Source of the DNA: Escherichia virus KFS-EC
Length of the DNA stretch: 64,000 nucleotides
Reading direction: 5' to 3' (one strand)
Sequence record: MH560358
Of this stretch, positions 38,630 through 42,195 are shown in pieces. A program made the position numbers and the translations under genes. The stretch's first letter is position 1, and each line of letters starts with the position of its first letter. Under the pieces are notes generated by a model, which had not been told where the DNA came from, ran no database searches, and was given only the letters and a program-made list of their open reading frames with translations.

Positions 38630-40216
38630 ATGAAAACTACCAAAGAACTGATGGAAAAATGGTCCCCGCTGCTGGAAAACGAAAAACTGCCGGAAATCGC
38701 AACTGCGTCTAAGCAGAAACTGGTTGCTAAAATTCTGGAATCTCAGGAAGCGGATTTTGCTGTAGACCCGATCTATAAGGATGAAAAAGTTGTTGAAGCA
38801 TTCGGTGGCTTTATCGCAGAAGCCGAAGTTGCTGGCGACCACGGTTATGACGCATCTCAGATCGCGGCTGGTCAGACTACTGGTGCAATCACCAACGTAG
38901 GTCCGGCTGTTATCGGTATGGTTCGCCGTGCTATTCCTAACCTGATCGCATTTGATATTTGTGGCGTTCAGCCGATGAGCACTCCGACTAGCCAGATCTT
39001 TGCAATCCGTTCTGTATACGGTCCAGATCCGCTGAAATCTGGTGCTCGCGAAGCATTCCATCCGATGTATGCACCTGATGCGTTCCATAGCTCTCTTGCT
39101 GCTAAAGGTGCAACTGTAGGTTCACCAACTGGTACTGCATTCGCTAAACTAACTCTCAGCACTCCGATTGAAGCAGGTGATATTGTACACCACACCTTCG
39201 CAGAAACTGGCATTGCATATCTGCAAAACGTTACCGCAGGACAAGTAACCCCGACCCAAGCTGGCAGCGAGTCAGATGATGAAGTTGTCATGAAGCTGAT
39301 GGAAGAAGGTAAACTGGCTGAAATCGCTTTCGGTATGGCTACTTCCATTGCCGAAATTCAGGAAGGCTTTAACGGTTCCAGCAATAACCCGTGGGCTGAA
39401 ATGTCAATGCGTATTGACAAACAGGTTGTTGAAGCGAAATCTCGCCAACTGAAAGCCCGTTACTCTATCGAAGTTGCGCAGGATCTGCGTGCTGTACACG
39501 GTATGGATGCTGACGCTGAACTGAATGCTATCCTGGCTAACGAAGTTCTGCTGGAAATCAACCGTGAAATCGTTGACGTCATCAACTTTACCGCTCAGGT
39601 TGGTAAGACTGGTATGACTCAGACCGTTGGTTCTAAAGCTGGTGTATTTGACCTGCAAGATCCGATCGATACTCGCGGTGCTCGTTGGGCTGGTGAATCC
39701 TTCAAATCTCTGATCTACCAGATCGACAAAGAAGCTGCTGAAATCGCTCGTCAGACTGGTCGCGGTGCTGGTAACTTTGTTATCGCTTCCCGTAACGTTG
39801 TAAACATTCTGGCTTCTGCTGATCAGGGTATCAGTCTTGCTATGCAGGGTGCTGCAAAAGGTCTGAATACCGACACCACTAAAGCTGTTTTCGCTGGTGT
39901 TCTGGCTGGTAAGTACAAAGTATTCATCGACCAGTATGCTCGTCAGGACTACTTCACCGTAGGTTACAAAGGCGATAACGAAATGGATGCTGGTATCTAC
40001 TATGCTCCGTATGTTGCTCTGACTCCGCTGCGTGCAACTGATCCGCAGTCTTTCCACCCGGTTCTGGGCTTCAAGACTCGCTACGGCATCGGTATTAACC
40101 CGTTTGCAGACAGCAAATCCCAGGCACCGTCCGCTCGCATCACCTCCGGTATGTTGAGCAAAGACAGCGTAGGTAAAAACGCATACTTCCGTCGTGTATG
40201 GGTTAAAGGTTGCTAA
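38630..40216 (+). CDS. 23: major capsid protein gp23
   Basis: LPEIA, GDHGYDASQIAAGQTTGAITNVGPAVIGMVRRAIPNLIAFDICGVQPM closely match the recalled T4 gp23. Confidence 0.95.
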   Translation: MKTTKELMEKWSPLLENEKLPEIATASKQKLVAKILESQEADFAVDPIYKDEKVVEAFGGFIAEAEVAGDHGYDASQIAAGQTTGAITNVGPAVIGMVRRAIPNLIAFDICGVQPMSTPTSQIFAIRSVYGPDPLKSGAREAFHPMYAPDAFHSSLAAKGATVGSPTGTAFAKLTLSTPIEAGDIVHHTFAETGIAYLQNVTAGQVTPTQAGSESDDEVVMKLMEEGKLAEIAFGMATSIAEIQEGFNGSSNNPWAEMSMRIDKQVVEAKSRQLKARYSIEVAQDLRAVHGMDADAELNAILANEVLLEINREIVDVINFTAQVGKTGMTQTVGSKAGVFDLQDPIDTRGARWAGESFKSLIYQIDKEAAEIARQTGRGAGNFVIASRNVVNILASADQGISLAMQGAAKGLNTDTTKAVFAGVLAGKYKVFIDQYARQDYFTVGYKGDNEMDAGIYYAPYVALTPLRATDPQSFHPVLGFKTRYGIGINPFADSKSQAPSARITSGMLSKDSVGKNAYFRRVWVKGC

Positions 40217-40302
40217 TATAAGCCAATTCCTGAAAAACTCCGGTCGGGTGAAATACCCGACTTATCATAAACCTTATGACAGTGTAAAGTGTTAATTCCA
40301 AA

Positions 40303-40331
40303 GGGAAGACTCGAAAGGGTCTTCCCTTTTT
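40303..40331 (+). terminator. intrinsic terminator after gp23
   Basis: GGAAGAC-TCGAAAGG-GTCTTCC hairpin + T-run. Confidence 0.7.
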
Positions 40332-40347
40332 GCGTATTATAACCTGT

Positions 40348-40355
40348 TATAAATA
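40348..40355 (+). promoter_or_regulatory. late-promoter-like TATAAATA
   Basis: Exact TATAAATA at the start of the 23-24 intergenic region. Confidence 0.4.
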
Positions 40356-40716
40356 AGGTTGCAAGCCTATATTCTATTGGGAGCGAAAATCGATACACAC
40401 AACAAAGACAGGAAGATGCGGAACATCGGTGGGTTGCTAGCCTAAATCCGGTGGATATGATATGTGATTTCTTTTGATGCTGGATTTATTAAAACACAAC
40501 AAACAATTCCACCAATTTTCGTAGTAACTGCATGGCAAAGGGACCAATGAATGAAATGAGCGTTCATGTTGATATTGGGTCGGATAGATTTGGTAGATAT
40601 ACAGATCTGGTGTATGCCGACCTTGTTATGACATTCCAGCGTGACGCTAGCGATAATTTTTGGTTTTGGTACGCTGTTCCCTGAATTAACCCAAAATTCT
40701 CCATAAGGAGGAATGC

Positions 40717-40869
40717 ATGAGTAAGAAAGAAAACAGCTATGTTATGACTCGTAAGGAATACAACGAATTGATGTTAGCATTAGCTTATGCAATTATTCGT
40801 TCTGATCATGCAATTAATCTGGTAAACAAAGTTAACCGTAGCGTTGATAATGTTTCTAGGAAGAAGTAA
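40717..40869 (+). CDS. small hypothetical protein (50 aa, MSKKENSYVMTRKEYNELM...)
   Basis: Below track cutoff; strong TAAGGAGG SD upstream and a hairpin + T-run terminator directly downstream. Confidence 0.5.
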   Translation: MSKKENSYVMTRKEYNELMLALAYAIIRSDHAINLVNKVNRSVDNVSRKK

Positions 40870-40879
40870 GTTTATTTTT

Positions 40880-40906
40880 GGAATCCTTCGGATTCCTTTT
40901 TCTTTT
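40880..40906 (+). terminator. intrinsic terminator
   Basis: GGAATCC-TTC-GGATTCC hairpin + T-run. Confidence 0.65.
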
Positions 40907-40908
40907 TG

Positions 40909-40916
40909 TATAAATA
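40909..40916 (+). promoter_or_regulatory. T4-type late promoter (TATAAATA)
   Basis: Exact TATAAATA 38 nt upstream of the gp24 ATG at 40954. Confidence 0.6.
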
Positions 40917-40953
40917 TGATATATCCATTAAGGCAAATACAGGATTCATAAGC

Positions 40954-42195
40954 ATGACTCATATTTTTACTGAACTGTTGCGGGAATCTACTTCCTCAGT
41001 AGCTAACCAGACAGCGCGACCGCAACTATTATCATTAACTCGCGCGGTAAACAACCTGATTTTCTCTGATCTGGTAGCAATCCAACCAACGGATCAACCA
41101 GTATCTGCATTGTACGGCCTACGTTATCTTAATCGTGATGGTCAGATGACTTTCCGAACTGCTGCAACCTACGGTGGCGCGGCTGGTGATCGCACAGAGA
41201 TTGAAGAGTTTTCAAAAGAAAAATCTTATGACGAAGGCGCACTGTTCAAATCAGGCGATGTTGTATACGAAGTTGTGACCGCTGGTACAGTCGGTGAAGA
41301 TGCCGAAACTCCAGAATCTGCGATCTTTAAAGGCGTAATGACAAACAAAATTCGTTTCTATAGCGATTGTGCATCGGTAGAATACTTTGAAGATAAAAAC
41401 ACCGAAATTGTGTCTACCTCTATGCAGTTTGACAAGTGGCAAGTTAATGTAGGTTCTCGTAAACTGAAAACCTCGTTCACCACTGAATTAATGCAGGATC
41501 TTGAGGCAAGCCAAATCAACTCTGAAAACTCTGTAATTGATCTTCTGGCTACTGTTGCTTCCGAAGAGATCAACAAAGATATTATTCAGAAGTTGATCAC
41601 TGTATCATCTCGCTATAAAATTAAAGGGATCACCCCTGATGGCGTACTTTCTCTCGTTAGCGTTCAGGATGCACCATCACAAGCGCGTGAACTTTACCGC
41701 TATGCTTGCGAGATGAGCAATCAAATGTTGCGGACTTCCTCCTTTGCTGGTACATACGTTTTGGCGTCTTCTCGCGTGGTTGGCCTCCTGCAATCATCCG
41801 GTTGGATGGAAGAAACCGACAATGCTCTAAGCGAAGGTCGTCTACGTTGCGGTCTGGAAGTGTACGCAGACACGACAACACCTTTCGATTATATGCTCGT
41901 TGGTTGTAAGCACATGATCGGTGATATGGAGAGTGTAGGTTCTCTGTTCTACTCCCCATATACAGAAGCCGACGGCGCTGGCGCGTATAAGAGCGTAATT
42001 GACCCTAATAGCTTCCAGCATCATGTAGCTATTATGAATCGTTATTCACTCTCTGTCAACCCATACACATCAAAAGTTGATCAGGAAGAACACCAGGTCA
42101 TCAAGGGTGACGATTGGGGTAAAATGGCTGGACGTTCAGAAATGTCCTACATTTTAGGAATCGAACTGCCACCACTTGAGATTGACAACGCTTAA
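40954..42195 (+). CDS. 24: head vertex protein gp24
   Basis: ELLRESTSS...RPQLLSLTRA matches the recalled T4 gp24 N-terminus; track start 40906 lies within the late promoter so 40954 is preferred. Confidence 0.9.
   Translation: MTHIFTELLRESTSSVANQTARPQLLSLTRAVNNLIFSDLVAIQPTDQPVSALYGLRYLNRDGQMTFRTAATYGGAAGDRTEIEEFSKEKSYDEGALFKSGDVVYEVVTAGTVGEDAETPESAIFKGVMTNKIRFYSDCASVEYFEDKNTEIVSTSMQFDKWQVNVGSRKLKTSFTTELMQDLEASQINSENSVIDLLATVASEEINKDIIQKLITVSSRYKIKGITPDGVLSLVSVQDAPSQARELYRYACEMSNQMLRTSSFAGTYVLASSRVVGLLQSSGWMEETDNALSEGRLRCGLEVYADTTTPFDYMLVGCKHMIGDMESVGSLFYSPYTEADGAGAYKSVIDPNSFQHHVAIMNRYSLSVNPYTSKVDQEEHQVIKGDDWGKMAGRSEMSYILGIELPPLEIDNA

Follow-up and report, generated by a model that had tools for sequence, protein, structure and literature searches.

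The window analysed here is the whole stretch of 64,000 nucleotides of Escherichia virus KFS-EC (MH560358), and the locus of interest is the spacer between gp23 and gp24. On the basis of spacer matches and synteny the window was assigned to Krischvirus, i.e. the RB49-like T4-type phages (Straboviridae). In the phage collection the spacer (40217-40953) was matched by 56-57 phage records, every one of them Krischvirus, with an identity of 99.0% to Shigella phage Sf20 and of 98.2-98.4% to RB49. The elements that an initial annotation had listed for this spacer (gp23 terminator, promoters, a gap of ~340 bp, and a 50-aa ORF with its terminator) were all recovered at the positions it gave, and are collected with the other features in Table 1. 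An ORF scan of the gap (40356-40716) yielded short frames throughout, the longest of which has 50 codons and no Shine-Dalgarno sequence (SD), in agreement with the description of some 340 bp that lack a credible gene. The two intrinsic terminators carry terminator annotation in GEC-3S, Makalu_001 and G2248 as well. The additional hairpin just downstream of gp23 is kept in relatives, including those phages that carry the gene cassette described below. A T-run follows it when it is read on the minus strand, where it looks terminator-like; it might act bidirectionally, but no minus-strand gene lies close enough to make use of it.

Table 1. Features of the gp23-gp24 spacer, its flanks and the related cassettes; positions refer to the window unless a relative is named
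Feature	Position	Strand	Remarks
gp23 ORF	38630-40216	+	upstream flank of the spacer
First hairpin	40242-40262	+	GUCGGGUGAAAUACCCGAC, just 3' of the gp23 stop; fold -13.1 kcal/mol, z -3.55
gp23 intrinsic terminator	40300-40334	+	13-bp stem and UUUUU; -20.9 kcal/mol, z -4.65
Late-promoter motif	40348-40355	+	exact TATAAATA; putative original promoter of the lost 102-aa/570-aa/310-aa/50-aa operon
Old 5' leader of the lost operon	40356-40401	+	SD GGGAG and inactivated 102-aa start; ends at junction 1
Junction 1	40401/40402		short CACA / GATGCACAC repeats around
Remnant A, internal ~50 codons of the ~570-aa fibre-like gene	40402-40545	+	~145 bp; blastn and peptide match
Junction 2	within 40546-40564		19-nt imperfect direct repeat; AATGAATGAAATGAGCGTT at both L004 1803-1821 and 3001-3019
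Remnant B, last ~50 codons of the ~310-aa coiled-coil gene	40546-40703	+	~160 bp; holds the SD-less 50-codon frame (40532-40684)
SD of the 50-aa ORF	40704-40711	+	TAAGGAGG; five nt upstream of ATG 40717
50-aa ORF (RB49p162 / phrog_16600)	40717-40869	+	conserved small protein
Intrinsic terminator of the (former) operon	40880-40908	+	GGAAUCC-UUC-GGAUUCC and U-run; -9.2 kcal/mol, z -3.5
gp24 late promoter	40909-40916	+	exact TATAAATA; 37 nt upstream of the gp24 ATG
gp24 ORF	40954-42195	+	downstream flank of the spacer
Cassette spans outside the window	L004 168-3162 (Brandy); L005 151-3123 (G2248)		also in L016, L017, L009 and L019-L022

The criterion that we used for a late promoter was the T4-type (gp55-dependent) core TATAAATA, centred near -10 and upstream of a late gene, and judged by their sequence the sites at 40348 and 40909 are both putative promoters of this type. 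The bare motif was not significantly enriched in the window (10 copies versus 5.9 ± 2.6 expected), and it is the position of the sites, not the motif count, that speaks for real promoters. Nine of the ten copies are on the + strand. The distance from TATAAATA to the start codon is 32-37 nt for the genes encoding gp22, gp23 (both 32-33 nt) and gp24 (37 nt), and the motif at 40348 lies at the same 37 nt from a dead start codon (ATA, 40393). A third copy was not found within 40217-40953, even when one mismatch was allowed, and upstream of the 50-aa ORF the motif at 40348 is now the sole one for a late promoter. In the cassette-bearing relatives, where it precedes a 102-aa gene, this motif is kept, while the gp24 motif does not vary among the 12 short spacers of the alignment and is found in Brandy and G2248 too. 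The motif scan upholds both late promoters of the initial annotation, and both had been predicted before in RB49 (94970-95012 and 95534-95576; Nolan et al. 2006, PMC1524935, additional file 5), at positions that correspond to the window sites 40348 and 40909. MotA middle promoters are absent from RB49 (PMC1524935), and a scan for sigma-70 promoters returned six sites versus 3.0 ± 1.8 expected, none of them compelling.

The product of the 50-aa ORF, which includes the peptide EYNELMLALAYAIIR, is 100% identical to RB49 ORF162 (RB49p162, NP_891733.1), Phi1 ORF162 and JSE EpJSE_00167, all encoded at the same gene 23-24 position, and matches phrog_16600 end to end (E = 1.5e-38). The SD and the terminator (a hairpin and T-run) that had been assigned to this ORF were both confirmed; the SD is invariant in 12 relatives and SD-like motifs are found at the same place in divergent homologues. 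Compared to G2248 the dN/dS of the ORF is ~0.14, and compared to JK32 the amino-acid identity is 59-60% with synonymous sites saturated, frame and length intact, and a dN of 0.285 (versus 0.122 for gp24). Frame, SD and length are thus kept in divergent relatives and dN/dS is well below 1, which on comparative grounds establishes the ORF as a genuine conserved coding gene, with purifying selection on the gene, its SD and its terminator. The family is small: an exhaustive HMMER search of 1.84 billion representatives recovered four 50%-identity clusters only, each of 48-50 aa, one of which (P0049) comes from the most divergent carriers of the gene, the metagenome contigs L019-L022; in the divergent contigs, too, the homologues sit at the same place, upstream of gp24. 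A word-indexed search with the protein retrieved only clusters at at least 88% identity; comparison with Pfam, PDB sequences and wide protein sets gave no match outside the tiny Krischvirus-type family; tblastn of the phage collection gave only chance matches outside Krischvirus; and a scan of IMG/VR gave only two further loci. The gene is restricted to this lineage and, as it is already annotated as a hypothetical protein in RB49, it is not new. The earlier suggestion of a possible novel late protein encoded by the small ORF holds in so far as this is a real conserved gene that appears to be placed for late expression, and fails with respect to its novelty, given RB49p162 and phrog_16600. No function, expression, proteomic or ribosome-profiling data for RB49p162 were found in the searchable literature, and neither were proteomics or transcriptomics studies of any Krischvirus. 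In the AF2 model the protein forms a single helix (residues 12-49, pLDDT 86.6) with a heptad register in which Y15, L18, L22, A25, A32, V36, V39, V43 and V46 occupy a/d positions; these are hydrophobic in 9 of 11 cases, and a coiled-coil-type helix is predicted for that reason. The annotation of the 50-aa ORF as a real gene is worth keeping.

Comparison with the 23-24 spacers of related phages, a check that had been proposed with the initial annotation, revealed an intact late operon at the same site in six Krischvirus records: Brandy (Brandy49, MZ504876), G2248 (MK327932), SSG23, SFHK24, UPWr_E1 and JK32. The order is: gp23 terminator, late promoter, a 102-aa gene, a ~570-aa fibre-like gene, a ~310-aa coiled-coil gene, the 50-aa gene, terminator and gp24 promoter. 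The spacers of these six phages are ~3.4 kb or longer and match the window spacer in its 3' part only, and the cassette annotation that we examined for Brandy, G2248, JK32, SSG23 and UPWr_E1 was intact at this site. A cassette-type spacer of 3,394 bp was also found in an IMG/VR contig (L009), and the four divergent metagenome contigs L019-L022 are all complete, with gp23 followed by genes for 102, 564, 309 and 49 aa and by gp24. The families of the 570-aa and 310-aa proteins reach down to 37% and 50% identity, respectively, in phage contigs of ~170 kb. Within this collection two deviations were observed. In Brandy the ~570-aa gene (L004 484-2213) is split into two CDS, of 250 and 327 aa, by a frameshift at a glycine/G-run, which could reflect a sequencing error, incipient decay or slippage. 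In JK32 an extra gene for a 614-aa coiled-coil ('tropomyosin-like') protein is present between the 307-aa and 50-aa genes (L006 1128-2972), an insertion that indicates that the cassette is itself modular.

With sensitive blastn the window spacer mapped to three separate pieces of the Brandy cassette: 40235-40401 to L004 9-176 (94% identity; this covers the terminator, the promoter, the leader and 9 nt at the start of the 102-aa gene), 40402-40564 to L004 1661-1821 (87%; inside the 570-aa gene) and 40546-40954 to L004 3001-3410 (95%; this covers the end of the 310-aa gene and the 50-aa gene, together with the terminator and the gp24 promoter). Common to the window and the intact Krischvirus cassette are thus both terminators, the late promoter with its leader, the 50-aa gene and the gp24 promoter, whereas the window lacks the 102-aa gene and ~90% and ~85% of the 570-aa and 310-aa genes, respectively, and the gene fragments that it does contain are frameshifted or stopped, unlike the intact forms. 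Where Brandy and G2248 have the ATG that starts the 102-aa gene, the window reads ATA (40393-40395). In remnant A a GGA codon has become a TGA stop and a 1-bp insertion shifts the frame; its peptide ...FDAGFIKTQQTIPPIFVVTAWQR aligns with ...FDVGFIKTPQTIPPIFTITVWHR of the 577-aa ORF of G2248. Remnant B contains a +1 T shift, and its 50-codon frame (...VDIGSDRFGRYTDLVYADLVMTFQRDASDNF...) can be aligned to the C-terminal end of the 310-aa protein (...VNVGTDRFDQYTDPVYVDLVMTFQRDASGNF...). In cassette-bearing relatives, Brandy and G2248 among them, the 310-aa gene stops at the TAA inside TAAGGAGG. The three-piece map and the repeats found at both junctions are accounted for by two repeat-mediated deletions, of ~1.5 and ~1.2 kb. 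It had been suggested that the untranslated stretch could be a decayed gene, and this proved correct: by homology, 40402-40703 consists of an internal piece and a 3' piece of two genes that are intact at this site in relatives.

The constraint on these fragments was assessed in an alignment of 12 short spacers, in which variation was scored by region. Over remnants A and B together (40402-40703) 35 of 304 columns were substituted (11.5%) and 11 distinct indels were found (of 1, 1, 1, 1, 2, 4, 11, 12, 13, 22 and 94 columns), 8 of which were not multiples of 3; over the 50-aa ORF there were 2 substituted columns in 153 (1.3%) and no indels (Fisher p = 4e-5 for the substituted columns, 12 relatives). 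Remnant A accounted for 21 substituted columns out of 146 and 7 indel events (1-94 bp), and remnant B for 4 indel events (1, 4, 11 and 12 bp). The two properties by which we recognise pseudogenes and deletion remnants are both present, namely homology to intact genes at the orthologous site, and a lost start, frameshifts or stops and relaxed constraint. As far as the aligned relatives show, the remnants are decaying pseudogenes, non-functional and free to drift. The 87% identity of remnant A to the Brandy gene could partly represent allelic diversity of the cassette rather than decay.

An alternative for remnant B is that the 50-codon frame encodes a functional small protein, the C-terminal part of the 310-aa protein having been domesticated. 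In most relatives a frame of 45-64 aa that opens with ATG does cover remnant B, it has been annotated in some of them as a hypothetical protein of 45-57 aa (Phi1 ORF161.1, GEC-3S, JSE, MIZ6), and the C-terminal ~40 residues of the intact 310-aa proteins match a PHROG family, phrog_20809. We nevertheless consider such a protein very unlikely. The frame has no SD, its start codon and N-terminus vary from phage to phage, and in most phages the +1 T swaps the ancestral C-terminus GFGTLFPELTPNSP for FWFWYAVP; a 4-bp insertion in RB49 itself and an 11-bp deletion in 011D4 moreover disrupt the frame, and in phiS it is shortened by 12 bp. Since the remnant frame is not conserved, the annotated 'hypothetical proteins' of 45-57 aa are best regarded as pseudo-ORFs. 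Those that go back to the 3' remnant of the 310-aa gene are Phi1 ORF161.1, GEC-3S BN201_0163/0164, JSE EpJSE_00166 and their counterparts in MIZ6 and the Makalu phages. The profile of phrog_20809, which has 45 positions, corresponds to remnant B and is matched by the C-terminal ~40 residues of the intact G2248 310-aa protein; the family appears to have been built on pseudo-ORFs. For annotation practice this means that several GenBank records and phrog_20809 appear to treat fragments of dead genes as hypothetical proteins.

The initial annotation had also proposed that the untranslated stretch could encode a late small RNA, and the same ~340 bp might be read as a functional late non-coding RNA or as a structured 5' UTR with a regulatory effect on the 50-aa ORF. 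The position of the stretch, between a late-promoter motif and a translated ORF, implies that it is probably transcribed, and a weak 6-bp hairpin is able to pair the SD of the 50-aa ORF with the preceding codons. We judge a role of either kind to be highly improbable, as the whole stretch is explained by homology to protein-coding genes and the signs of a structured RNA were absent. An Rfam scan of 39800-41400 with a permissive E-value gave three noise matches and no family above noise (best 17.7 bits versus a gathering score of 43), the fold of the 355-nt leader had a minimum free energy no better than that of shuffled sequences (z +0.41), and the region is rich in indels and partly deleted in close relatives, where 99, 22, 13, 12 and 11 bp have been lost in addition to many indels of 1-4 bp. 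The hairpin at the SD (-6.8 kcal/mol, z -1.6) was not significant, as 14 out of 200 shuffles equalled it, and is not kept in JK32, L018 and L019. Translational coupling through an SD-sequestering hairpin was dropped for its weakness and its lack of conservation in distant homologues.

In T4 the spacer between genes 23 and 24 holds segD, an antisense gene for a GIY-YIG homing endonuclease (PMC2988022), as the initial annotation had mentioned for segD. The T4 spacer resembles that of the window in that terminators and the late promoter of gene 24 flank optional DNA at the same place among the head genes (PMC2988022), and differs in that its insert is an antisense nuclease gene, whereas the optional DNA of the Krischviruses is a sense-strand late operon for fibre-like proteins. 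Optional DNA is thus a recurring feature of the 23/24 spacer in T4-like phages. That the spacer of the window would be a degraded segD-like homing-endonuclease site is suggested by the presence of segD at this position in T4 (PMC2988022), which makes the same spacer a variable one in T4-like phages; it is extremely improbable, however, as all of 40402-40703 is homologous, in sense orientation, to fibre-like or coiled-coil genes and no nuclease domain was found in those cassette proteins that were scanned against Pfam and PHROGs. A GIY-YIG / seg remnant was therefore rejected for the window, the region being accounted for by the fibre-like genes. Clear homology to a degraded homing endonuclease gene without a conserved small ORF had been named beforehand as the outcome that would count against the initial reading, and what we found is the opposite on both points: no nuclease homology and a conserved small ORF.

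Taken together, the gp23-gp24 spacer is very probably the scar of a late operon that was lost by most Krischviruses, and of which the promoter and the last small gene survive. The ancestor would have possessed the full late operon, with the 102-aa, ~570-aa, ~310-aa and 50-aa genes, as in the intact relatives. The RB49-type lineage then lost ~2.7 kb through two deletions between short direct repeats; what stayed was the promoter with its leader, ~145 bp from the interior of the 570-aa gene and the final ~160 bp of the 310-aa gene. From 40348, the former operon promoter is expected to drive a late transcript of ~550 nt that ends at the 40880 hairpin, has ~360 nt of pseudogene debris as its leader and would yield the 50-aa protein as its sole translated product; read-through of the gp23 terminator could be an alternative source of mRNA for the 50-aa ORF. 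We infer from the sequence comparison that the cassette was lost and not gained, i.e. that it is ancestral and the RB49-type spacer derived, because the window contains internal gene fragments out of their context and because the cassette occurs in the most divergent relatives; insertion of the cassette into an RB49-type spacer is implausible because the internal gene fragments would have to pre-exist. The event is ordinary gene loss with remnants, and there is no evidence for a new RNA or a new mechanism. In the searchable literature we found no description of the spacer as the scar of a fibre-like operon. The reference phage RB49 itself appears to be reduced from an ancestor with an extra late fibre-like operon beside the major capsid gene.

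The more interesting lead lies outside the window, in the uncharacterised fibre-like cassette. The 570-aa protein contains a collagen-like G-x-y run and gave no sequence-level match to Pfam families or to the sequences of solved structures (PDB). Its AF2 model has a moderate overall confidence (pLDDT 61) and a C-terminal domain that is modelled better (80-90). A Foldseek search with the model returned the baseplate receptor-binding proteins (RBPs) of phi812 (9euf), the R1 pyocin fibre (6cl5) and the RBP of phage 1358 (4l92), with E-values from 1e-5 to 1e-9, together with many 'tail fiber' entries in BFVD, and the best-modelled C-terminal domain aligned to TNF/C1q jelly-roll folds with a target TM of 0.6-0.7. 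On model fold the protein is therefore alike to phage RBP/fibre proteins with collagen-like and TNF/C1q domains, of which the window keeps only a dead fragment of ~50 codons. A precomputed Pfam annotation, PF27308.1, is attached to some of the homologues of the 570-aa protein (P0010-P0012). The 310-aa protein is an alanine-zipper coiled coil, for which matches to tail-fibre PHROGs were weak and nothing was found among PDB sequences. On this evidence, which is of moderate quality, the cassette looks like a late fibre or adhesin module.

The 50-aa gene has been retained after the loss of the upstream fibre genes, which means that its role goes beyond those genes. Its product is probably a coiled-coil-forming helix and may serve as a small morphogenetic accessory factor. 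Tentatively, and with rather low confidence, we would connect two further readings: that the 50-aa helix is a general late morphogenetic factor of Krischviruses, and that the lost cassette was an accessory fibre or adhesin that sets host range. The former, in which the helix might for example assist the gp24 vertex or trimeric fibres as a coiled coil, would if true explain the lone survival of the 50-aa gene; the latter would make the common RB49-type phages, including that of the window, natural deletion mutants of a fibre-bearing ancestor. For Brandy49 a broad host range and a penetration of O-antigen have been reported that are both unexplained (PMC9569957), and a link of these to the cassette is possible. 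The cassette thereby offers a testable candidate for host-range differences among therapeutic RB49-like phages.

Within the phage collection the deleted form of the spacer is found in 51 of the 57 records, and this form has itself diversified. A further deletion of ~99 bp across junction 1 (window 40397-40495) characterises the JSE type, to which 10 of the 51 belong, and Phi1, Cognac and MIZ6 share a 22-bp deletion (Phi1 type, window 40435-40454). The resulting spacer lengths, 737-741 bp for the RB49 type, 714-718 bp for the Phi1 type and 627-638 bp for the JSE type, provide a convenient lineage marker within Krischvirus. The spacer of Makalu_002 measures 723 bp and carries a 13-bp deletion instead of the 22 bp of the Phi1 type.
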